From: a virus
DNA: 64,000 nt
Strand: one strand, 5' to 3'
IMG/VR virus record: IMGVR_UViG_3300006802_000073
Span: 1-64,000 of that record
The translations under genes were made by a program, and so were the position numbers. Shown here piece after piece: positions 3,801 through 50,548 of this stretch. Every line of letters starts with the position of its first letter. Position 1 is the first letter of the stretch. The notes beneath the pieces are model-generated. The model was not told the origin of the DNA and did not search any database. It was given only the letters and a program-made list of their open reading frames with translations.

Positions 3801-6800
3801 GATTAACATTCTCAGTTTGTGATGCATAAGGTTGTTCTATTAATGGTGTATGAGAATAACGTAAAGTTACTAAATCTCCAGTAACTTGATATTTAGATGA
3901 TATTCTAGCAACATCAGTATTATTCTTTTCCACTAAATTAATATTATCCATGTAGAAAAGAGGACGTAACTGATTATTCTGCATATCAACAGCACATCTA
4001 TAATCAGGTGAATATACGTCACCTACTCCATGTCCTTCAAAATTATCTACAATAAATCCATTTTTAAATCTATATAAACCATCTGCATCTAATATAGTTA
4101 AAGATTTAGTTTCTTGTTCAAGTAAATTTAAAGCAGTATAATATTCGACTTGATTTAAACGTTTTTCCAATGTACCGATATCACGCATTGTATAACGTTT
4201 ATTATCAACAGGAGTAATAATTACATCTGGTGTAGAAGTAGATGCTGTATATGGGGTTAAACTTAATTTATATAAAGTCATCCCTAAATCAGGGTCATTT
4301 GGCTCAGGTGCAGTTATTGCGGGTGCTCCTGATACAACAAAAAAATCACCTGCTGGACTTAATGCAAGTTTATCTTTTCTACCTAAATAATAATCATAAC
4401 TAAAATTTGTTTGAAACCCTCTTCTTGGAATCTGTGTTAAAGATGCTCCCCCTGATGTTGAAAAGTTTAAATTATTGTCTGCTTTTCTTGGTCTAAAATC
4501 TAAAACATCAGTAAGTTTTAATGAATATCCTTCACCATAAAATATTGGAACATCAATATCTTGAATATTAATATAAGAATTAGCTGAGAAATAATCTCCA
4601 GCACCATGTTCAAAATATCTAAATGATACCGTGATATTTCCTGATGGAATAGGATAACTTGGTTTTCTAATCAATCTAGAAACATCATAATGAGTTAAGC
4701 GTTGCCCATTGTCTAAAGTAAACCAATCAGTGATATCTATTGTATTACCAGACATCTTTACACTATCAATTCTATAAACATCTGCTTCATTTAATAAAAT
4801 AGAATTTTGTTGATATGTATTAGCATTTGTTATAGTTAAAGACCCTATAGTTGGTGTCTTATCTTTTGCTGTTAAAGTTTTAACAATAGGCAATATAATA
4901 GTGAAATTATCTGAAGCTGTTAATCCAGAAAGAGTAACAGAACCTGAAGTTGTACCAATAGTTGGATTTTCAATTGCACCAGTATCTCTATTAATAACCA
5001 CATAATCTGTAGAAAGTGCAGATGCATTATAAGTATCACCCGTAATAGTTAATCCTCCACTACCCGATGATGTTCCTTCAACAACTTTAGTTACTGTATA
5101 AGAGGGTGAACTTGTTTCTTTAATTGAAACATAAGGTAATTCAAAAATTAATGGTTGTAGTTGAGGTTCATAAATAGATGTCTGAATTCTATAAGGAATA
5201 GAATTTGTTATAGTAACTGAAAGATCTACAGTTAAACTATAATCATTTGTAATTGATATAACTTTACGTTTATCGGTTGTTGGATTGTTAAAATATATCC
5301 AATCACCAACAACTAATTCTGTAGTAAATTTTGTACCAGAGCCTGTTACAGTAGTAGCTGCTGATGCTGTAATAGTTCCAGAAAGTTGTACTAATTCTGG
5401 TTCTATATCAGCAGTAAATGCTACTCCAGTAGCAACATTACCTAATTGTTTTACATTTCTAGTAAAAGACTTACCAGAATTCATTTTTATATCAAATATT
5501 GATAATTTAAATACTCCAGATGTTGCAGAAGGATTACCCGAATCGTAATATAAATCTCTAACTCTTGTTGTACCAACAACATTTGCTGTCACTGCACCTC
5601 TAGTTACTGTAAATGCATCATAAAGATTTACAGTACCAAATTCTGTAATACCTAATGTTGCAGTTGCATTTGCAAATACATTAGAAACTCTAACATAATT
5701 ACCTACAGTTGTAGGAACAATATCATTAGTAACTGAATTATAAGATCTTGCTTTTGAAACCGTGAGATATTGAGTAGCTATTTTTTCTATTTCATAACCT
5801 TCAACATATGCTTTACCGGGTTCAAGTGCTACTACTAATTTACTTTCATCTCCACCTGCATCTGCACTATAAAGTCCTTGATTATATGTAGGAGTTTCTG
5901 TATATAACCATTCAATAGATCCATCAGATGCTGAACCATAAGTATGTGTAGGTGCTGTGGAACCTGCTGTATATGTAGCCCCTGGATCATCAAAAGCAAT
6001 ATAAGTATTACCATTATAAACAATATTATCGCCAACTAAAATATTACCTTTACCTGAAGTCCATACTCCACGATTATTATTTCTATGCTCTTTTATTTGA
6101 ATTGCAAAAGGTCTTACTGTATAATTTCCTGATTCATCATATGTTCTACGTGCAAGTGTTTTTTCTAAAACAGAATATTCTGTTCTATTAACTAAATTTT
6201 TAATTAATCCATTCTCAATTCTAGATAATTCTATAAAATCTTGATCTAATGTAGATGTAAGAGAAAGTTTATCTAATGTTAAACTAATCTTATAACGATG
6301 TGCTCCTGGAGCAGTTTCGTTATAAGAACCTTGAGCATTATCTACTAATGAAGAATCATCTTCTTCAGTAATAAAATTTTCAGATAATGCTAAACCTACT
6401 CTATATGAAGGAAGACTAGAATATTTTTCTAAAACTATAGTTTGTGCAAGAACTTGTACAAAGTTATTTGCAATATAATAAACTCCGGTATCAATAGATG
6501 CTATAGAACTATTAGTTATGGCATCAGAGGAAATTGTAGTTAATGTAGAACTAGAACCGGAGATTGTTAATTCTTCTCCATCATCAAATGTAAGAAATTC
6601 TGTACCCGATCTTATAAATTTTACTATTATAGTTGGTGAATCAGAACCCTCTGCATTTATTCCTTTAAGAACAGTAGCTTTAACACCAGATGAAGAACCT
6701 GTTACAATAATGCCTTTTTCACTAAATACAGAAGGTAAATTAACACTGGTAGCTTCAAGTTTTACAGCATTGACATTGGTATCAATTGAAAGTTGTCCTG

Positions 6801-8318: not shown

Positions 8319-8343
8319 CTAAAATCTCCAAAACTATTTGTAA

Positions 8344-8351
8344 TATTTATA
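8344..8351 (-). promoter_or_regulatory. T4-type late promoter TATAAATA
   Basis: Exact TATAAATA on the minus strand about 25 nt upstream of gp8. Confidence 0.7.
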
Positions 8352-8354
8352 TAA

Positions 8355-10112
8355 TTAAACTTCTTCTATCGATATATAAATTGGTGGAGGAATTAATGAA
8401 GGTGTACTTTCTTTTATATCTTCAATTGTCAAATACTCTATATCATAAATTCTTAAATCATCATAATCGTATTTAAATCTTTCTAATGTTTCATATGATG
8501 GTCCAATTCTATATCTAAAATCTCTTGATAATCTAGCATATGACGAAATTTCAACAACAGTTGATGCTGTAGTTGGAATTCTAACAAAAGCAGATTCTGT
8601 TATTTGTTTTATTAAAAATATAATCGAATCATAAACATTCATTACTCCAGAATAAGCAGCCTCTGTAACATCGGGAGTAAATTCAACGTATACTTCACCA
8701 AAAAGTTCCATACCTGCGGGATGTAAAATCTTTTTAACTAAATCTTTCCAGTATATAGATGATTGAGTAGTGCGAATTACATAAGAATAATCTTGATAAT
8801 AATAACTATCCTGTACCTTTATTTTTTCATCTAGTTGACCTTCTTTTCCTGTATAATAACCTTCATAATTACACAGTGTACCAATAATAGGTGTTATATT
8901 ACCCTGTATACTATTTAACGAAAGATTACCTACTATTACATTTGAATTAGATAAAGCAAATCTAAATCTCTTTGTTGATGGTGCTGATATTACAGTATAC
9001 AATCCATCATATGAACTAGATAAATTTGATGTAAAAGTCACATTAATAGTATCATTTGCAGCTAAACCATGATTTGCTACATTACCAGACGAATCAATTA
9101 AAGTTGCTGTAATTACATTAGATTCTAAAGAATATTTACCATCCTGTATTGTAGTTGGAAGAGTTATAGATGCAGTTGCTGTTGAATAATCAGCTCCAAA
9201 GTTTGATATAGAAATTCTTTTTATTTTACCCCCATCACCTATAGCACCAATAGAACCAGAAAATGAATTACCTGTTGTTCCACTTACAGAAACTGCAGTA
9301 CCAACATTATATCCATAACCTGAATCTACTATATCAAAACCAGTAATTACATTTAGTACAACAGCTTCACCAGTAATATCTAAATTACCGGTAATCAAAT
9401 TACCATATTCAAATTTAATCGTTTCTCCACCAGAAAATGTACCATTAATAGTATCTTGCTCTAATGTTAATTCATAAACATCTTTATTAGGTATTTCATA
9501 ACCTAATCTTGAAACAGAATCCACAACAGCAGATGCACTAGAAGTTAATCCAGTAATTAAATTTGCACTATATGTAGATAAATCTACACTATTACCTGGT
9601 GCATAAATTTTAATAGTTTTTCTGGTAATCCATCTTCCATCAGAAGCTCTTAACATATCTTCTTTTGGATAATAAAAAGTTATCTCATCATCAAATAATA
9701 ATCTAAACAATAATCTTATAGCAGCTTCTGAACCTTTAGTTGCATATATTTGACCAATTTTTTTAGCTAAAGCACGTTTACTTTCAGTTTGATCTATATC
9801 AGAAAACAATGTATCATAATCGCCAGGATTTTGATCTGAAAAAATTGTTTTGGGTAAATCATATGCAAATTCTTGTAAAAATTTATCTACAAACGTATCT
9901 ATAGTATCATCTATATCAGCATATGCTCTAGCATTTTGAATTGCATATTGTGCTTCACCATCTTGTTCTAAGAATTCATAATATGCTTGAAGAAAGGCAA
10001 TAAAAGTTTGGTAATCACTACTTGATGTAGGATCAGATAAATCTACACGCAAGAATTCAGGTAATTGATTAATTACCTGATGTGATAATTTTTTAATTAA
10101 AGTTGTATCCAT
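8355..10112 (-). CDS. gp7: baseplate wedge initiator
   Basis: FLQAYYEFLE, YATKGSE..LFRLLF, QDSYYYQDYSYVIR and HPAGM motifs. Confidence 0.8.
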   Translation of the reverse strand: MDTTLIKKLSHQVINQLPEFLRVDLSDPTSSSDYQTFIAFLQAYYEFLEQDGEAQYAIQNARAYADIDDTIDTFVDKFLQEFAYDLPKTIFSDQNPGDYDTLFSDIDQTESKRALAKKIGQIYATKGSEAAIRLLFRLLFDDEITFYYPKEDMLRASDGRWITRKTIKIYAPGNSVDLSTYSANLITGLTSSASAVVDSVSRLGYEIPNKDVYELTLEQDTINGTFSGGETIKFEYGNLITGNLDITGEAVVLNVITGFDIVDSGYGYNVGTAVSVSGTTGNSFSGSIGAIGDGGKIKRISISNFGADYSTATASITLPTTIQDGKYSLESNVITATLIDSSGNVANHGLAANDTINVTFTSNLSSSYDGLYTVISAPSTKRFRFALSNSNVIVGNLSLNSIQGNITPIIGTLCNYEGYYTGKEGQLDEKIKVQDSYYYQDYSYVIRTTQSSIYWKDLVKKILHPAGMELFGEVYVEFTPDVTEAAYSGVMNVYDSIIFLIKQITESAFVRIPTTASTVVEISSYARLSRDFRYRIGPSYETLERFKYDYDDLRIYDIEYLTIEDIKESTPSLIPPPIYISIEEV

Positions 10113-43389: not shown

Positions 43390-43567
43390 TTACAGTATTA
43401 AATATCATAATAGCTTCTTCAAAGGTATGATGGATCAGAACATGAGTAACTATCTTGTTATTTTCGATACGAAAATAATCAGGTCCATATTGCCAAAGTA
43501 CAAGAAATCCGTCTCTTGTAATAAATCTAGGCATAAAAGAAACGGATTTTTTGTAGTCAACTGTCAT
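43376..43567 (-). CDS. small hypothetical protein, paralogue-like of 42612-42803
   Basis: ATGA coupling; shared motif. Confidence 0.5.
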   Translation of the reverse strand: MTVDYKKSVSFMPRFITRDGFLVLWQYGPDYFRIENNKIVTHVLIHHTFEEAIMIFNTVKSMS

Positions 43568-43977
43568 AGATGAATATGTAGGCGTTTAATATGTGATGAA
43601 GAAACCTTGACAATGATCCATCCGTTGTACCAGAGATCGGGATATTCTAGAACTCCCTGTACAAATTGCTCTCTTGCCTCGAGATAATTTGCCTCACCTT
43701 TAGATTTACATAGATATAAAATTGTACGTCTAAAACTATTTTCACCTAACTTTGCTACATCTGTTTTAAGTTCATCTGATGATGACCAATATTTTTTCCA
43801 ATCAGATTGAACTATGATTTTTTTTCTTTTACCTTTTATTTGTTTATATTTTTTAGTCCAAAATAATTTTTTGCCGATATATTTTTTACCGGTAGGTATA
43901 CAGGTAATAAGATATACAAAACCTATATCATCTGAGTTAGGAGTTGTAAAAACTTGTCCATTATATAGCCAATCCAT
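43564..43977 (-). CDS. GIY-YIG family endonuclease
   Basis: FVYLIT..TGKKYIGKK, SDWKKYWSSS, YLEAREQF, YN. Confidence 0.8.
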   Translation of the reverse strand: MDWLYNGQVFTTPNSDDIGFVYLITCIPTGKKYIGKKLFWTKKYKQIKGKRKKIIVQSDWKKYWSSSDELKTDVAKLGENSFRRTILYLCKSKGEANYLEAREQFVQGVLEYPDLWYNGWIIVKVSSSHIKRLHIHL

Positions 43978-43998
43978 AAATAACCTCTTTTGGTTTAT

Positions 43999-44157
43999 TT
44001 ATGAATCATCTTCCTCATTATAATCGAATTCTTGTTCATCTGTTAATTCAGAGCCACAAAAAGCACAATACAGTACTTTATAATAATGATCATCTAGATC
44101 ATGTCTTATTTTAAATACTGCTTCACAATCGAAACATTCGTAACCTTTATTTGCCAA
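43999..44157 (-). CDS. zinc-ribbon protein with acidic tail (TTG start, not in the ORF track)
   Basis: CFDC...CAFC; AGGAG RBS. Confidence 0.65.
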   Translation of the reverse strand: MANKGYECFDCEAVFKIRHDLDDHYYKVLYCAFCGSELTDEQEFDYNEEDDS

Positions 44158-44166
44158 TATTAACTC

Positions 44167-44361
44167 CTATTTGCAACAATTTCTTTTTTCTTTTATAGAG
44201 GATATTTCTATCCATTTGTTAATTGGACAGCGAACACTTTTCATTAAAACTTTGCCAGGCATAAAGCAACCACATTCTTTGCAAATTTTAAGCATAGGAT
44301 TGAATCTGTCGCATTCCTTGCATATCTCCATACGAATTTGATTATAGGTCATTCCTATCAT
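44167..44361 (-). CDS. Cys-rich small protein
   Basis: R..IC..C...C.ECGCFM..K....CP..KW. Confidence 0.65.
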   Translation of the reverse strand: MIGMTYNQIRMEICKECDRFNPMLKICKECGCFMPGKVLMKSVRCPINKWIEISSIKEKRNCCK

Positions 44362-44362
44362 T

Positions 44363-44911
44363 TTATTTAGCTAGAGGATTGTTCAATGCTTCTTGTATTT
44401 TTTTAGCAACATTAGCATTAGATTCTTTAATTGCATTATCTAGTTCTTTGCGAGTTGCTCGAAGTTCTGTTTGAACCTCTTTGACGCTTATATCTGTCTC
44501 TCGTTGGCTTTGTTTAGAGCTACGTTCAACGGAATCGACTACTCCTTCAAGCCTTCGGATATCACTTTTTAAATCATTTTTAATATTGTTTGTGTATCCG
44601 GTTGCTTGATTTACAGTTTCTTTAGTTGCATCCATTTCTTTATTTAACACTTCAAGTTTTTTATTAATTTCTCCAAGATCTGGGGCAACATATTCTGTAA
44701 TAGCTTTTTTCATACCTTGATAATCTTTATATACTTCAAACGCACCATATAAACCACCAAGAACAGTTGAAACAAGAGTACCTGCAATCATGATTTTTGC
44801 AGGTGTAAAAGAATATCCTCCGATAGAAATCACAGTATTTTCGCTCATGTATTTTTCTTTAGCTGCTTCCAGCTCTTCTATTTTTGCATCAACGTCCTTA
44901 CCTTTTTCCAT
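44363..44911 (-). CDS. single-TM coiled-coil protein (exported cassette gene 6)
   Basis: TM IMIAGTLVSTVLGGLYGAF followed by ~120 aa of heptad-like sequence. Confidence 0.7.
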   Translation of the reverse strand: MEKGKDVDAKIEELEAAKEKYMSENTVISIGGYSFTPAKIMIAGTLVSTVLGGLYGAFEVYKDYQGMKKAITEYVAPDLGEINKKLEVLNKEMDATKETVNQATGYTNNIKNDLKSDIRRLEGVVDSVERSSKQSQRETDISVKEVQTELRATRKELDNAIKESNANVAKKIQEALNNPLAK

Positions 44912-44913
44912 CT

Positions 44914-45324
44914 TTATTTACCTTTGTTTTCAAACTGCATTCTTCTTAAATTTTCTAATTCTTGATTAAGTCTCATCACCTCTATTCGTCGTTTCGTTAA
45001 TTCTAATTGATAAAATAAATTACAATCGAGACGAGTTTTTGGTGCTCCAATTGGTATTATTATTCTACCATAAACACCAACCTGTTTACCTGTATTTGCA
45101 TTTACGTTTGATCCAATAACGGTTGTATTGTTATTATTATTTGCAATACCTAAAACACCAAATTCTATATTGGTACCTGAACCAATTGCCATAGAACATT
45201 CCATATTATCTGCTCTAATATGGTCATTTTGATATTGCCCAGGTGACATAGGTATAGACAAATTTAAAGAATCGACCGCATATGCATTAGCAGATAACAT
45301 AAGAATAACGAAAATTCTTTTCAT
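44914..45324 (-). CDS. exported protein with amphipathic beta-strands, Cys pair and C-terminal coiled coil (cassette gene 5)
   Basis: Signal peptide ending AYA; NIEFGVLG and VGVYGRIIIPIG strands. Confidence 0.7.
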   Translation of the reverse strand: MKRIFVILMLSANAYAVDSLNLSIPMSPGQYQNDHIRADNMECSMAIGSGTNIEFGVLGIANNNNNTTVIGSNVNANTGKQVGVYGRIIIPIGAPKTRLDCNLFYQLELTKRRIEVMRLNQELENLRRMQFENKGK

Positions 45325-45327
45325 ATT

Positions 45328-45705
45328 TCATCTTTTCCTTGAGCATATTTTAGATGCTATTACAGTCACAGTATTTTCAGTTACCATTATTTTTGATTCA
45401 CTACATATATAAGTAACTTTATCAACATTAGATGAATTCACAAATATCTCAATAGTTTTTCGTCTCAAGTATGGAATATAAATAATTCCACTTGGACTAG
45501 ACATAAAAAGTATCTTATTCCAATTTTTATCGTAAACTGTTATTTCATAATAATTAACATCTTTACGCATATTCAACAATTCCATTTTTGTACTGGATAT
45601 ACCAGATACAAAAGAAAAACTAAATCTAGGATATGTTGGTGTAAATTGATGAGCATGCGCCCACCCACTTAACATAATAAAGAATATCACGACATAACGA
45701 AACAT
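45328..45705 (-). CDS. exported beta-sandwich protein, possibly pilus-chaperone-like (cassette gene 4)
   Basis: Signal peptide ending AHA; FTPT start, beta-rich, C-terminal Cys pair. Confidence 0.55.
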   Translation of the reverse strand: MFRYVVIFFIMLSGWAHAHQFTPTYPRFSFSFVSGISSTKMELLNMRKDVNYYEITVYDKNWNKILFMSSPSGIIYIPYLRRKTIEIFVNSSNVDKVTYICSESKIMVTENTVTVIASKICSRKR

Positions 45706-45710
45706 TTATA

Positions 45711-46214
45711 TCACAATGCTATACATTCAGCCACAACAACAGCACGATAAGTACCACCTGGGAGTGCTTTTCCTACACCATATGTTGCAGTTGAAGATGA
45801 TTTAAACCATGTTGAACCTGCAAAGGTTAAATCAAATTCAGTTGTATTATTATAAACACGTTTATTGGTATCATATGCAGACATACCAGCTACAGAAACA
45901 CGGCTAACACTCGTATCTCCTACCCAATCAACAGTATCACTTAAAGTTGGAGAAGTAGAAAACGATATTGGAGTGCTGATAACTGCTTTATATGCATTTG
46001 CTGCAAATACATCATACCGAATAACAGGCATAACACCACCATCTGCAGGAGCTGTACTTAATTTATCAATAGTTGGGTTACCATAAATACCCGTTGTATC
46101 TGTTGTTATAATACATTTACTTGCTACAGTTCCAATAATTGGAACCTCAGAAGCAGTAGCAGTAATTGTAAGAGCAATCATTAATCCTACAAAACCTAAA
46201 ATCTTTTTATGCAT
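45711..46214 (-). CDS. exported fimbrial/pilin-like protein (cassette gene 3)
   Basis: Signal peptide; I.GTV.SKC.I N-terminal strand; LPGGTYRAVVV C-terminal strand; Thr/Ser/Gly rich. Confidence 0.55.
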   Translation of the reverse strand: MHKKILGFVGLMIALTITATASEVPIIGTVASKCIITTDTTGIYGNPTIDKLSTAPADGGVMPVIRYDVFAANAYKAVISTPISFSTSPTLSDTVDWVGDTSVSRVSVAGMSAYDTNKRVYNNTTEFDLTFAGSTWFKSSSTATYGVGKALPGGTYRAVVVAECIAL

Positions 46215-46229
46215 AAAATTCTCCGAGAA

Positions 46230-47108
46230 TTAGTTGTTATTAAAACGTTTATACTGCTCTTCTACCATTTTTTTATGTAAATTTTGTTGTGTTAAGTTTC
46301 CTCTTAACGCTTTAACATTATCTGGAAGTTTTGCATCTTGAAGTCTAACTGCATCTTTGTATGTGCCACCAGGCATACTGACACTATAACTTTCAAATCC
46401 TTTAATATTATTCATAGCAAAAAAGGCATCTGCTTGAGCTACAGCATTTGCCGTTAATAAAGTATTTTGTATTGCTTTATTAGCAATTTGTTCAATTTTC
46501 TTCTTCTTTTCTTCTGCAGCCTTTTTCAATTCTTTTTGTTTCTTTTCTTCTTCAGTTTCTAATTTTGTTTTATTTGCCATTACTTCTTTAATATATTCTT
46601 CTGTAGCAGTATCTGTTGCTATTGAAGGAGTGTCAATTGTTGGTGGAATATAATTTGGACAAGATCTATCTATTACTGGAGTAGCTGCACATGTATCAAT
46701 CTTATAATTATATATAATAACTGGATTTTTTACAGTTCCAAAACCAGTTGTGGCAATTTCACCATCACCCCATGCTTTAAAAGGAATATTGTCAACTGGA
46801 ACAGATTTAGCAATAGTATTTCCAGGAAGACCTGACCAATCATCGGTGCTTCTAAAAACAAACCCCGTCCCTGATGCATTCTTATTTTGTATTGAAACAG
46901 TAAATGCATCCGCTGGATTTTTTGTTACATTATAAGTATATATAATACCGGTTACAGAAAGACCTGTATTTTGCGGTATAACATTCGTCATAGTCCATTG
47001 CTGACCGGTTGCAGCAGCATTTGAACTTTGATTATATGTTGTCTCAGAGTAAGAATAAAAGGAACAAAATGCTAATAAGACCCCCACCCATCCAAGTTTT
47101 TTGTTCAT
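46230..47108 (-). CDS. exported protein with beta domain, Cys pair and charged helical region (cassette gene 2)
   Basis: Signal peptide; CAATPVIDRSC; EEEKKQKELKK stretch. Confidence 0.65.
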   Translation of the reverse strand: MNKKLGWVGVLLAFCSFYSYSETTYNQSSNAAATGQQWTMTNVIPQNTGLSVTGIIYTYNVTKNPADAFTVSIQNKNASGTGFVFRSTDDWSGLPGNTIAKSVPVDNIPFKAWGDGEIATTGFGTVKNPVIIYNYKIDTCAATPVIDRSCPNYIPPTIDTPSIATDTATEEYIKEVMANKTKLETEEEKKQKELKKAAEEKKKKIEQIANKAIQNTLLTANAVAQADAFFAMNNIKGFESYSVSMPGGTYKDAVRLQDAKLPDNVKALRGNLTQQNLHKKMVEEQYKRFNNN

Positions 47109-47589
47109 CGCTCATCCCTTCTAATTTTTTAGTTTCTTGTTTAGGTATTCTTTCTGGATTAGATTGCCATGCAGCTTTTGCTTCAGAACCTATCATACCA
47201 TCATAAGGACAGGGTGTTCCTGCCATAATCATAGCATCAAAAACACGATGATCTTGACAAAGTGTTGACACTGCAGCAACTTTCATTCCCATATCATATA
47301 ATGTTTTTGATAATTTTAATCTTTCACAATTCAAATCTCGAATTGTCATACCACCAGAAAGTCCTAATATTTGAGTTTGAACAGCTCCAGCAACTCCTGT
47401 TGTGCATAAGTCCGAATTAGTATTATTAATTGTTGGACTAATTGCAGATGGAGGAGGAGATTTTAAAGTTGTTACAGAATCAGATTTTACGGTGCTTGTT
47501 GAAGTCGATTCAGTTATAATTGGTTGTGCATAAACAGAGAATGATAAAAAAATAATAAAAAACACCAAAAATGGTAGCTTTTTTTGCAT
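47044..47589 (-). CDS. exported 4-Cys protein with C-terminal hydrophobic anchor (cassette gene 1)
   Basis: Start MQKKLPFLVFF..VYA; SPPPSAISP, DLC, NCERLKL, LCQD, GTPCP; ends LISILFLLFLL. Confidence 0.7.
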   Translation of the reverse strand: MQKKLPFLVFFIIFLSFSVYAQPIITESTSTSTVKSDSVTTLKSPPPSAISPTINNTNSDLCTTGVAGAVQTQILGLSGGMTIRDLNCERLKLSKTLYDMGMKVAAVSTLCQDHRVFDAMIMAGTPCPYDGMIGSEAKAAWQSNPERIPKQETKKLEGMSDEQKTWMGGGLISILFLLFLL

Positions 47590-47611
47590 TTTTCCTTCTA
47601 ACATTCTATTA

Positions 47612-48592
47612 TTAAGCCCAAACTTCATCCCAAGATCCTGAAAGCGCACCTTTTGCATAATCGGTTGCACGATTTTCAAAGAAATTTGTATGAATAGGCG
47701 CATTGATAATTTCCTCAACCCACGGTAGAGGATTCTTTTTTACTTTAAAAATACCTTTCATTCCAAGAGAAATTAATCTACGATCAGCGATATAACGGAT
47801 ATAGGTTTTAACATCATCTGAAATTAAATTCTGCATATTATCTATACCAAAAGCCAAATCAATAAATTTATCTTCTAGATCCACCATCTTTGTAGCTATA
47901 GTATATATCTTTCCTTTTAATTCATCATTCCATAATTCACGATTTTCTTCAATATAAGTTCTAAATAATTTTATCATAGATTCAGCATGCATAGTTTCAT
48001 CTACAATACTCCAGCTTATAATTTGACCCATACCTTTCATTTTACCATGTCTAGGAAAATTAAGCAACATAATAAAAGAAGAAAATAATTGCATACCTTC
48101 AGTAAAGGCAGAAAAAGCTGCAATATTTGTTGCAACCGAATCCTTAGTACCATTGTTATTAGAAAGATTCGTAAAATATTCATGCTTATCCTTCATTGCC
48201 GCATATTCTAAAAATTCATTATACATAGAATCTGGCATACCTAAAGTTTCAATAAGATGACTATATGCTGCAATATGTACTGCCTCTCTTGCAGCAAATC
48301 CAGATAACATCATACGTATTTCAGGTTGAGGAAAATATGGCAGATAGTTCTTAATATAACCACCAGCTACATCAATATCTCCTTGAGTAAAAAATCTAAA
48401 TATATGAGTAAGAAATAATTTTTCAGAATCAGATAATTTATTTTTCCAATCTTTAACATCTTCAATCATCGGTACTTCACCAAATAACCAATGTGCTTGC
48501 TCATGTGCTAACCAAGAAGAATATGCCCATTCATAACTAAAAGGTCTAAAATAGTCTCTTTCATCTGTTAATTTTAATTTCTTTTTAACCAT
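47612..48592 (-). CDS. nrdB: ribonucleotide reductase class Ia beta subunit
   Basis: FFTQGD, EAVHIAAY, EGMQLFSSF, DETMH, NFFENRATDY. Confidence 0.95.
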   Translation of the reverse strand: MVKKKLKLTDERDYFRPFSYEWAYSSWLAHEQAHWLFGEVPMIEDVKDWKNKLSDSEKLFLTHIFRFFTQGDIDVAGGYIKNYLPYFPQPEIRMMLSGFAAREAVHIAAYSHLIETLGMPDSMYNEFLEYAAMKDKHEYFTNLSNNNGTKDSVATNIAAFSAFTEGMQLFSSFIMLLNFPRHGKMKGMGQIISWSIVDETMHAESMIKLFRTYIEENRELWNDELKGKIYTIATKMVDLEDKFIDLAFGIDNMQNLISDDVKTYIRYIADRRLISLGMKGIFKVKKNPLPWVEEIINAPIHTNFFENRATDYAKGALSGSWDEVWA

Positions 48593-48756: not shown

Positions 48757-48936
48757 TTAGTGTTTTATTATTTCTTCTTCTATAATATGTATTATAGTAT
48801 CAGTTAGAATAATTTCATGGCGAACTAAATCCATTTTTTGTTGTAGTATACTCATCTGTTCCTTATAATATTCTAATTCTCGTTCTTGTTGCTTTTTTGT
48901 TTCATAAACTTCTTTAAGAAAAATTATTGTACCCAT
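48757..48936 (-). CDS. small coiled-coil protein (59 aa, not in the ORF track)
   Basis: MGTIIFLKEVYETKKQQERELEYY...; TAATG coupling. Confidence 0.55.
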   Translation of the reverse strand: MGTIIFLKEVYETKKQQERELEYYKEQMSILQQKMDLVRHEIILTDTIIHIIEEEIIKH

Positions 48937-49559
48937 TACTTTACATAATACCCCAGTCTTTTATTTGTAATCTCCCCATTACCATCTTCTTCACCCTCTA
49001 TCCACGTACAATCATCCGGTACCAAAACATTTGTTGTATTCTCAAAAACAGGATAAAGTTCAGTATAGTCAAGCATATGATCAAATCCCCCTCGCAAATG
49101 TACTTCAATAACTTTATCACCTATAATCTCAATATTTAATCTCTCTACATCTAAATTGAATAAAACTGTAGGTAAAGCAAATTGTTTATCTATTCTTTCC
49201 CATTTCAAAAAATAAGATAAGTCATTACAATTATTATAACCTTGAAAACATACTAACTGTTCTAATATTTCACCACGTTTTACATAATCTACAGAATAGT
49301 GTCCTCCTGTAAATACTTCACACCAAAAATGACCTGCAGGTAAATGTGGTATATCGTCTTTGTTATAATAACATATTTTTGCACCAGCACCCATACCCTT
49401 AAGATTATAAGTTGGTCTAGTTATATAATAACCATCTTCAGGTATAGGAACAGATGCTGGTCCACATTTATAACCAAAAAAATCTGCTACAAATAATTTA
49501 TTAAACCAATTTCTATACTGTGGATATTTAAACCATGATTCTACATCTTCATCTATCAT
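48936..49559 (-). CDS. ATP-grasp-like phage protein
   Basis: RP.YNL.GMGAGA, WCEVFTG.H.SVD, NIE.I..KVIEVHLR; start MIDEDV. Confidence 0.55.
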   Translation of the reverse strand: MIDEDVESWFKYPQYRNWFNKLFVADFFGYKCGPASVPIPEDGYYITRPTYNLKGMGAGAKICYYNKDDIPHLPAGHFWCEVFTGGHYSVDYVKRGEILEQLVCFQGYNNCNDLSYFLKWERIDKQFALPTVLFNLDVERLNIEIIGDKVIEVHLRGGFDHMLDYTELYPVFENTTNVLVPDDCTWIEGEEDGNGEITNKRLGYYVK

Positions 49560-50548
49560 ATATGTGTACTTAAAATCCAAAAAGCATAAGCTAATAAAGC
49601 AGAACAAGGAATAGTCAATAACCATGCAATTAAAATTTCACCTGCTTTTTTCCATTTTACTTTAGGATCTGGTTGACTTGCACCTACACCTAAAATAGCA
49701 CCCGTAATAGTATGAGTTGTACTTACAGGTATACCCATTGCACTCGCACCAAATAACATCATACTTCCACCTGTTTCTGCTGCACAACCTTGTCGTGAGC
49801 TTAATTGTGTTAACTTAAATCCTAAAGTTTGCACAATTCTCCATCCCCCCGCAAGAGTTCCTAATCCCATTACAATAAAACAAATTAATACTGCCCAATA
49901 AGGAATTGTTTCTGTTGCTTGTAAATAACCACCTGCAACCATAATAAGAAAAATTATACCCGCTGTTTTTTGTGCATCATTTGCTCCATGACCCATCGAA
50001 TAGCATGCACTTGAAACTATTTGTAAACGTTTAAACCATTTATTTTGTCGATCCGTTTCAATTGGAAATATATTTCTTATAATTGTATTTAATGATGCTC
50101 CTAATACAAATCCAATAATTGGTGCTGCAACAATAAAAGAAACAATTTTTATAATATTGTTTGTATATATTACATCAATTCCTCCACTTGCAATACTTGC
50201 ACCAATCAATCCACCTATTAACGCATGGCTACTAGATGTTGGAAGTCCTAGCCACCATGTAATAAGATTCCATGTAATAGCACCCATAAGACAACCAAAT
50301 ACTACATATAATGTAACTGCTTGTGGAATTACTATACCTTTTCCTATTGTTGCAGCAACTTTAAAAGTAATAAAAAACATAATTATAAAGTTACAAAATG
50401 CTGCCATTGCAACTGCCTGTATAGGAGTCAATGTCTTAGTAGCAACAATTGTTGCTATAGAATTTGCAGCATCATGAAAACCATTTGTAAAATCAAAAAT
50501 CAATGCGATAATAATAAGACTTATTACAACCAATAATGTAGATTCCAT
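49556..50548 (-). CDS. pit: inorganic phosphate transporter (PiT/PHO4 family)
   Basis: NGFHDAANSIAT, GLPTSSSHAL.G, HGANDAQK and GIPVSTTH signatures; multiple TMs. Confidence 0.95.
   Translation of the reverse strand: MESTLLVVISLIIIALIFDFTNGFHDAANSIATIVATKTLTPIQAVAMAAFCNFIIMFFITFKVAATIGKGIVIPQAVTLYVVFGCLMGAITWNLITWWLGLPTSSSHALIGGLIGASIASGGIDVIYTNNIIKIVSFIVAAPIIGFVLGASLNTIIRNIFPIETDRQNKWFKRLQIVSSACYSMGHGANDAQKTAGIIFLIMVAGGYLQATETIPYWAVLICFIVMGLGTLAGGWRIVQTLGFKLTQLSSRQGCAAETGGSMMLFGASAMGIPVSTTHTITGAILGVGASQPDPKVKWKKAGEILIAWLLTIPCSALLAYAFWILSTHI

Follow-up and report, generated by a model that had tools for sequence, protein, structure and literature searches.

The window analyzed here is a stretch of viral DNA of 64,000 nucleotides (nt), corresponding to positions 1 to 64,000 of IMG/VR record IMGVR_UViG_3300006802_000073, and the element under study is a cassette of six genes, hereafter g1 to g6, which occupies positions 44363-47589 on the minus strand. 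Open reading frames (ORFs) and their translations place g1 at 47044-47589 (181 amino acids [aa]), g2 at 46230-47108 (292 aa), g3 at 45711-46214 (167 aa), g4 at 45328-45705 (125 aa), g5 at 44914-45324 (136 aa) and g6 at 44363-44911 (182 aa), all on the minus strand. The first two genes overlap by 65 nt and the remaining gaps within the cassette measure 15, 5, 3 and 2 nt. The stop codon of nrdB (PF00268, E 2.5e-73) precedes the start of g1 by 22 nt, in agreement with an original prediction, made by reading the DNA alone, of six tightly coupled genes directly downstream of nrdB. This adjacency is specific to the genome under study, as neither nrdB nor nrdA was present within ~5.6 kb upstream of the cassette in any of 85 related loci. 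With 36-42% identity between its baseplate wedge protein and the counterparts in HTVC008M, Mosig and the OM43 phage Melnitz, the virus is a marine T4-like myophage of the broad HTVC008M/Mosig/Melnitz group.

The products of g1 to g5 all have N-termini in which basic residues, a hydrophobic stretch and a cleavage-type site of the small-x-small form succeed one another. Signal peptides were called by reading the sequence and its hydropathy. Sequence, hydropathy and alignments further bore out the conserved cysteine pairs of g1-g5 and the single-pass membrane coiled coil of g6 that had been anticipated for the cassette. The six genes are real, and relatives sharing 35-65% amino acid identity retain the same features. 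None of the six proteins matched an entry of Pfam, NCBIfam or PHROGs above the curated threshold. Scanning the members of five family alignments singly against Pfam yielded nothing consistent, the alignment profiles of g1-g5 (that of g3 included) found no match among PDB sequences, and structure searches of BFVD and the ESM Atlas returned only the families themselves or uninformative rows.

The cassette is real and widespread, a previously undescribed phage module behaving as a mobile unit kept intact across contexts. Relatives of g3 are found in more than 700 unnamed metagenomic protein clusters and are encoded by at least 596 IMG/VR contigs. The six families occur in a common order across 85 fetched loci, and searches with family hidden Markov models (HMMs) recovered all six genes in the canonical order in every one of the 55 loci with enough flanking DNA; the view of the six genes as one unit is thus upheld by their co-occurrence and order across phage genomes. 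In loci L086 (a divergent one), L091 and L092, g6 is relocated ahead of g3, still within the cassette. The flanking genes, in turn, vary from locus to locus, with nrdB upstream in the window, a thymidine-hypermodification cluster in L001 and TIG/Laminin_G proteins in L004, and the GC content of the loci ranges from 34.5% to 59.8%, indicating that the carriers probably infect varied hosts. L004 also carries a NUMOD3 homing endonuclease inserted between g1 and g2. In the window, a SegE-type GIY-YIG homing endonuclease gene (43564-43977, minus strand; PF19835, E 7.5e-37) lies ~400 nt downstream of the cassette. Together, the SegE-type endonuclease and the NUMOD3 insertion may help explain the movement of the cassette between phage genomes. 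Nine loci (L018 [8334-8792], L020, L021, L030, L045, L063, L067, L069 and L071) harbor an extra gene between g5 and g6, whose helical product of 153-155 aa ends in a hydrophobic tail anchor and belongs to no Pfam family; this protein may be a seventh, optional component.

A search of 185,579 bacterial species genomes for g3 homologues returned only eight contigs of metagenome-assembled genomes, which, being short and mutually inconsistent in taxonomy, were taken to be misbinned viral DNA. Searching 1.8 billion representatives with the g3 profile HMM delineated a tight family, comprising 114 representatives and lacking any bridge to known pilins or to other known proteins. No description of the six-gene cassette was found in a search of the literature.

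Relatives in cultured phages reveal that the cassette is a composite of a g1-g2 pair and a g3-g4-g5 triad, with g6. The four-cysteine domain of g1 is also present in cultured Pelagibacter and Roseobacter phages: in HTVC115P, a g1 homologue is followed by the 466-aa gp53, the C-terminus of which matches the C-terminal half of g2 (HMM E 5e-8), and in phage Mosig a g1-type domain is followed by a 611-aa exported protein. Neither g3 nor a g2-type N-terminal domain was detected in the cultured phages possessing the g1 domain. Relatives of g5, on the other side of the composite, occur in 57 cultured T5-like Vibrio phages (Thalassavirus), and three adjacent genes of Vibrio phage Bennett match g3, g4 and g5 (HMM E 1e-6, 3e-5 and 2e-15, respectively). 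PHROGs 25895, 25455 and 37374, to which g3, g4 and g5 display weak matches, correspond to these Vibrio phage homologues. The Bennett triad directly follows two genes for large proteins and directly precedes the gene of a 67-aa lipoprotein (lipobox L-I-S-G-C), which the g5 homologue overlaps; the holin and endolysin genes come next, ~600 nt downstream of the g5 homologue. The deposited starts of Bennett gp149 (4142-4546) and gp150 (4465-4839) in L111 (NC_055829.1) are apparently too far downstream, in that in-frame upstream ATGs add typical signal peptides to both products, the start of gp149 then overlapping the end of gp148.

The AlphaFold2 model of g4 (predicted local distance difference test [pLDDT] score 91.2) consists of a signal peptide and one beta-sandwich. 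Of the 25 PDB matches obtained with Foldseek at E <= 1e-3, 24 were chaperones of chaperone-usher systems, matched in their domain 1, including PapD, FaeE, Caf1M, DraB, FimC and SafB (E 7e-5 to 1e-3). VIA-align aligned residues 18-125, the entire mature chain, with SafB (Z 11.0; 103 residues, 3.1 A), FimC (10.8), YadV (10.4), CfaA (10.1), PapD (9.9) and CsuC (9.3), and the nearest named cluster of the ESM Atlas, a weak lead with a score of 0.82, was PapD_N. As modeled, g4 thus folds like domain 1 of the chaperone-usher chaperones within the MSP superfamily, and the single PapD-type beta-sandwich originally predicted for it was recovered. At the sequence level, PapD_N (PF00345) was not matched at E <= 1 by g4 or any of 51 family members, and hhalign comparison with six E. 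coli chaperones gave a probability of ~1%. The protein displays an invariant pair of cysteines (C101 and C121), a long loop (residues 106-118) ahead of the last strand and a basic C-terminus. In the last strand, R/K119 and K/R123 are conserved in 48-51 of the 51 sequences, and position 27 is K/R in 33 of them; compared by sequence position only, these basic residues are candidate counterparts of Arg8 and Lys112 of PapD, to which the C-terminus of the subunit is anchored. His19, with which the mature chain is predicted to begin, is invariant (51/51) within the motif H-E/Q-F/W-T-P-T-Y-P, and is replaced by Leu in the distant Vibrio phage homologue.

The g3 protein was likewise modeled as a beta-sandwich (pLDDT 91.8), the first and last strands of which carry the invariant C34 and C164. 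Its mature N-terminus, residues 22-33, lies outside the modeled sandwich and presents alternating hydrophobic residues around an invariant glycine (V24-I26-G28-V30), and its C-terminus ends in the motif P-G-G-T-Y-R-A-V-V-x-A-E-C-I-A. Mean column identity in the family is 61%. In the model, g3 is an adhesin-like beta-sandwich, and the conserved N-terminal extension stays outside the fold. Foldseek found no match to g3 below E 1e-3, and its weaker rows mix MSCRAMM adhesins with chaperone-usher pilins, the latter (the PapG pilin domain, CfaB, FimG, Caf1 and CsuA/B) having E values between 5e-3 and 4e-2, probabilities of 0.6-0.99 and template modeling scores of only 0.3-0.45. Neither Fimbrial (PF00419) nor SCPU (PF05229) was matched at E <= 1 in g3 or 79 relatives. 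An hhalign probability of 52% to 16 E. coli pilins proved to be driven by the signal peptide and fell to 0.9% (E 0.059) upon its removal. When the g3 profile was aligned locally with type 1 pilins, the best alignment coincided exactly with their donor-strand motif but was not significant, and a complex prediction for three mature copies of g3, bearing on donor-strand polymerization, returned a score of 0.30 against a mark of 0.42, from which no conclusion is drawn either way.

The remaining four proteins were described from their sequences and alignments. In g1, which matches phrog_20531 (E 4e-12), the signal peptide is followed by a Ser/Thr/Pro-rich linker and a highly conserved helical domain of ~90 aa; the alignment contains 45 invariant columns, among them C62, C88, C111 and C127. 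The protein ends in G-G-G and a hydrophobic tail, a putative membrane anchor or sorting signal, and this tail (window positions 47044-47100), which is devoid of a basic end, presumably recalls sorting signals of the GlyGly-CTERM type. The g2 protein comprises a signal peptide, a conserved beta-rich N-terminal domain and a Cys-x9-Cys loop, followed by a Lys/Glu-rich coiled-coil linker and a conserved C-terminal domain terminating in H..MV..QY; C140 and C150 are nearly invariant, and no Pfam family was found for the protein or the members of its alignment. In g5 (phrog_37374, E 3e-7), the signal peptide is followed by two amphipathic segments, both highly conserved, which the invariant C43-C101 pair closes. 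The Asn/Asp/Ser-rich loop between the segments is hypervariable, its length ranging from 11 to 32 aa and its column entropy reaching 2.7 compared to 0.8-0.9 in the flanking segments; the C-terminus is an amphipathic coiled-coil helix. Finally, the hydropathy of g6 indicates a charged N-terminus, one transmembrane segment (residues ~40-58) and a long charged helical region, predicted to be a periplasmic coiled coil, with the conserved C-terminal motif A-L-x-N-P-L-A. Pfam and NCBIfam returned only weak matches of the coiled-coil type for this protein.

Consensus scans of the nrdB-g1 junction and the window cassette detected no T4 late promoter, sigma-70 promoter or terminator above chance, and the cassette appears, from its sequence, to be read through from nrdB in this genome. 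Among relatives, in contrast, 30 of the 66 distinct upstream regions contain the T4-type late promoter motif TATAAATA, placed 27-91 nt ahead of g1 (expected frequency, 0.014 per 150 nt), and a few, such as L015 and L049, display near-perfect sigma-70 promoters (TTGACA, 17 nt, TATAAT) ~60 nt upstream of g1. Thus, the cassette usually has a promoter of its own, often a late one, and is seemingly wired to different expression classes depending on the phage.

The reading that we favor, with a probability of about 0.4, is that the cassette is a mobile phage module whose products assemble in the periplasm and outer membrane of the host during infection, around a core formed by a chaperone-subunit-type pair. 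Starting from the export, the co-inheritance and the modeled g3 and g4 folds, we infer a sequence of events in which g4, after Sec-dependent export, would bind and stabilize g3 through beta-strand complementation, its last strand and basic C-terminus doing the binding in PapD-type fashion. g3 would next be passed to an envelope scaffold acting in place of an usher, in which g5 would oligomerize by way of its C-terminal coiled coil and point its disulfide-closed hairpin, hypervariable loop included, toward the outer membrane or the exterior. The periplasmic coiled coil of g6 would tie this scaffold to the inner membrane, and the separable g1-g2 pair would bring in another anchor in the inner membrane, together with an exported domain that varies. 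Displayed or polymerized at the surface, g3 may then alter the infected cell through adhesion, aggregation or shielding from other phages. This reading is backed by the export or membrane-insertion signals on all six proteins, the conserved cysteine pairs of g1-g5, the strict co-inheritance of the genes, the recurrence of the triad in Vibrio phages and the fold of g4, as well as by the confidently modeled beta-sandwich of g3 with its weak Foldseek rows to pilins, the N-terminal motif of g3, the hypervariable loop of g5, the late promoters and the precedent of phage surface fibers.

A number of observations weigh against it. None of the cassette proteins is significantly similar in sequence to any pilus component (Pfam, NCBIfam, hhalign). 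As originally predicted, no usher gene accompanies the cassette: PF00577 was not matched in the 149-kb record (87% complete) by a search that, as a control, found the E. coli usher. The g4 protein has no second domain (PapD_C), its mature form being ~107 aa long and the family measuring 119-130 aa throughout; longer relatives with two domains were sought and none turned up, a result that carries little weight, and MSP and ASH domains, which are PapD-like folds other than chaperones, come within 1 Z of the chaperones. As for g3, the gene is present in a single copy in the genome. Its best VIA-align matches are MSCRAMM domains (SdrD, FnBPA and ClfB; Z 7.1-7.8 over ~105-115 residues), and no chaperone-usher pilin appears among the 50 best rows. 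Z values of up to 7.8 are typical of models with no clear relative, and the pilin identity of g3 is therefore not established; nor, given the Pfam and hhalign results above, is the more precise proposal of a Csu/spore coat protein U subunit, in favor of which there are left the short N-terminal motif resembling a donor strand and the weak Foldseek rows to pilins. The scaffold roles of g1, g2, g5 and g6 are suggested by sequence pattern, and the position of the Vibrio triad beside lipoprotein and holin-endolysin genes would suit a role in lysis or exclusion equally well. Of the first interpretation of the locus as a usher-less fiber system, the unit and the chaperone fold of g4 have thus stood, but not the identification of g3 as a pilin, for which signatures were missing and profile comparisons insignificant.

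The same exported proteins could instead serve superinfection exclusion or receptor masking, an explanation that we consider less probable. Without forming a fiber, they would block host receptors or DNA-entry routes in the manner of Llp of T5 or Imm and Sp of T4, thereby protecting the infected cell from competitors and the progeny from loss on debris; g3 would be a ligand-binding adhesin-like domain and g4 its folding helper, and the loop of g5 and the N-terminal domain of g2 would track host targets. That the nearest folds to g3 are ligand-binding adhesin domains agrees with this explanation, as do the variable N-terminal domain of the g1-g2 pair among pelagiphages and the mobile, accessory behavior of the cassette, which carries promoters that are its own and differ in class. 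The cassette products would, like Llp, Imm and Sp, be phage-encoded envelope proteins of lytic infection, and the Vibrio triad is found in a comparable neighborhood; its setting in Bennett, where large proteins are followed by a lipoprotein gene, recalls the receptor-binding-protein/llp pairing of T5-like phages. Known exclusion proteins, however, are single small proteins rather than strictly co-inherited sets of six, and neither sequence nor fold relates them to the cassette. Masking would also require fewer parts than a PapD-like partner, a pair of coiled-coil proteins and a pair of membrane anchors, and the 61% mean column identity of g3 would be unexpected in a protein tracking variable receptors. 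The late promoters of many relatives, although suited to the protection of progeny, would act late for exclusion.

An envelope module associated with lysis, in which g6 and g5 would be spanin-like parts or control lysis timing and the other proteins would be accessory periplasmic factors, is less probable still. The N-terminal membrane anchor and periplasmic coiled coil of g6 resemble the topology of an i-spanin as found in the two-component spanins (lambda Rz/Rz1 and T4 PseT.3/PseT.2), and its conserved C-terminal motif would suit partner binding; likewise, the overlap of the Bennett g5 homologue with a small lipoprotein gene upstream of holin and endolysin is typical of spanin-pair architecture. 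The T4-type late promoter of many relatives points in the same direction, and no T-type holin was found in the genome record, by a search whose controls also failed to match. In the window, however, a lipoprotein partner is lacking: the coding strand from 43900 to 47700 contains no ORF bearing a lipobox, and the signal-peptide cysteine of g2 is not conserved. In addition, g5 differs from spanins in its cleavable-type signal peptide and beta-rich conserved core, the six proteins contain no muralytic or holin family and match no spanin PHROG, g3 and g4 are always linked to g5 and yet have no place in known lysis systems, and in the window neither a late promoter nor a terminator comes between nrdB and the cassette. 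Very improbable, finally, is a periplasmic metal or nutrient module in which g4 would be a small metal-binding beta-sandwich of the CopC/YcnI type acting through His19, and the other proteins would support uptake. The invariance of this first mature residue and the PHO4 phosphate transporter gene 2 kb upstream would fit such a role. The notion of g4 as a histidine-brace metal protein was nevertheless mostly rejected, as no second invariant His, Asp or Met completes the brace and the Vibrio homologue has Leu at this position; furthermore, chaperones, and not cupredoxin- or CopC-like proteins, top both fold searches.

Returning to the favored reading of a chaperone-subunit-type assembly, its closest point of reference is the chaperone-usher pathway (PapD/FimC and the archaic Csu system). 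As in that pathway, adjacent genes encode a Sec-exported protein of PapD fold (g4) and a Sec-exported immunoglobulin (Ig)-like beta-sandwich (g3), the latter with a candidate donor strand of alternating hydrophobic residues and a conserved glycine at its N-terminus and a G-x-Y-x-A-hydrophobic C-terminal strand, and disulfide-stabilized folding in the periplasm is implied for the cassette proteins. Unlike chaperone-usher operons, the cassette lies in a genome devoid of an usher, has a chaperone-like protein of one domain instead of two and a single subunit gene, and carries no PapD_N, Fimbrial or SCPU signature, profile-profile comparison being insignificant; moreover, g1, g2, g5 and g6 are four obligatory partners with no counterpart in that pathway, and the carriers are lytic phages. 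The best structural matches of g3 are the N2/N3 domains of the MSCRAMMs of Gram-positive cocci, beta-sandwiches to which ligands bind by strand complementation. The g3 protein differs from them in envelope context and domain organization, and the identity of 5-10% and Z values in the range of unrelated common folds set limits to the comparison.

Fiber secretion by marine phages has a precedent. Pelagimyophages and HTVC023P-type podophages carry an operon for curli, or type VIII secretion (T8SS), in which genes for CsgG, CsgF and CsgA/B are accompanied by genes for FecR, an adenylate cyclase and a histidine kinase, and which has been proposed to function in 'sibling capture', exclusion or import (PMC7029224, PMC9599517). 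The original statement that no such system was described in a T4-like phage accordingly holds for the cassette itself but not for phage-encoded fiber secretion, which had already been published (PMC7029224, PMC9599517). Both modules consist of several genes for exported proteins, occur in marine T4-like and other phages, move between families as a unit and have been proposed to give rise to a structure at the surface of the infected cell; they differ in that no sequence relationship exists between them and that their components and likely assembly chemistry are distinct. The 149-kb record contains neither CsgG (PF03783) nor CsgF (PF10614), and five further large records with the cassette lack CsgG, leading us to reject the identification of the cassette with the pelagiphage curli operon; cultured curli-bearing pelagimyophages, conversely, lack g3. 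Stated in its boldest form, the assembly reading would make of the cassette an alternative to pelagiphage curli serving the same ecological end. It would be a usher-independent secretion-assembly system mobile in at least two marine phage families (T4-like myophages and T5-like Vibrio siphophages), in which a PapD-like chaperone of one domain would pass its single Ig-like subunit on to g5, an oligomeric outer-membrane component of coiled coil and beta-hairpin that g6 would tether to the inner membrane, giving a surface polymer or coat. We regard this full scheme as speculative and, taken as a whole, doubtful.

Among the viruses of the sea, T4-like phages rank with the most abundant, and the role of most of their accessory genes is not known. 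The preservation of an intact cassette across contexts, GC contents and hundreds of contigs points to a selected, multi-part function in the host envelope. Were a surface structure to be its product, the cassette would represent a second phage route, unrelated to curli, to altering the sticking, sinking or phage resistance of plankton cells, and would imply that the PapD-type chaperone principle works without an usher. Because the g3-g4-g5 core is also present in cultured Vibrio phages growing on laboratory strains of Vibrio harveyi/campbellii, the question is testable at the bench.

Other genes surround the cassette in the window. Directly downstream of g6, a 64-aa Cys-rich protein (44167-44361, minus strand) matches DUF6171 (E 2.7e-6), and is followed by a second small Cys-rich ORF at 43999-44157. 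On the upstream side, the gene of the PHO4-family phosphate transporter (49556-50548, minus strand; PF01384, E 7e-89) is located between nrdA and nrdB and shares 70 nt with the start of a 229-aa ORF (48936-49625) belonging to no Pfam family.

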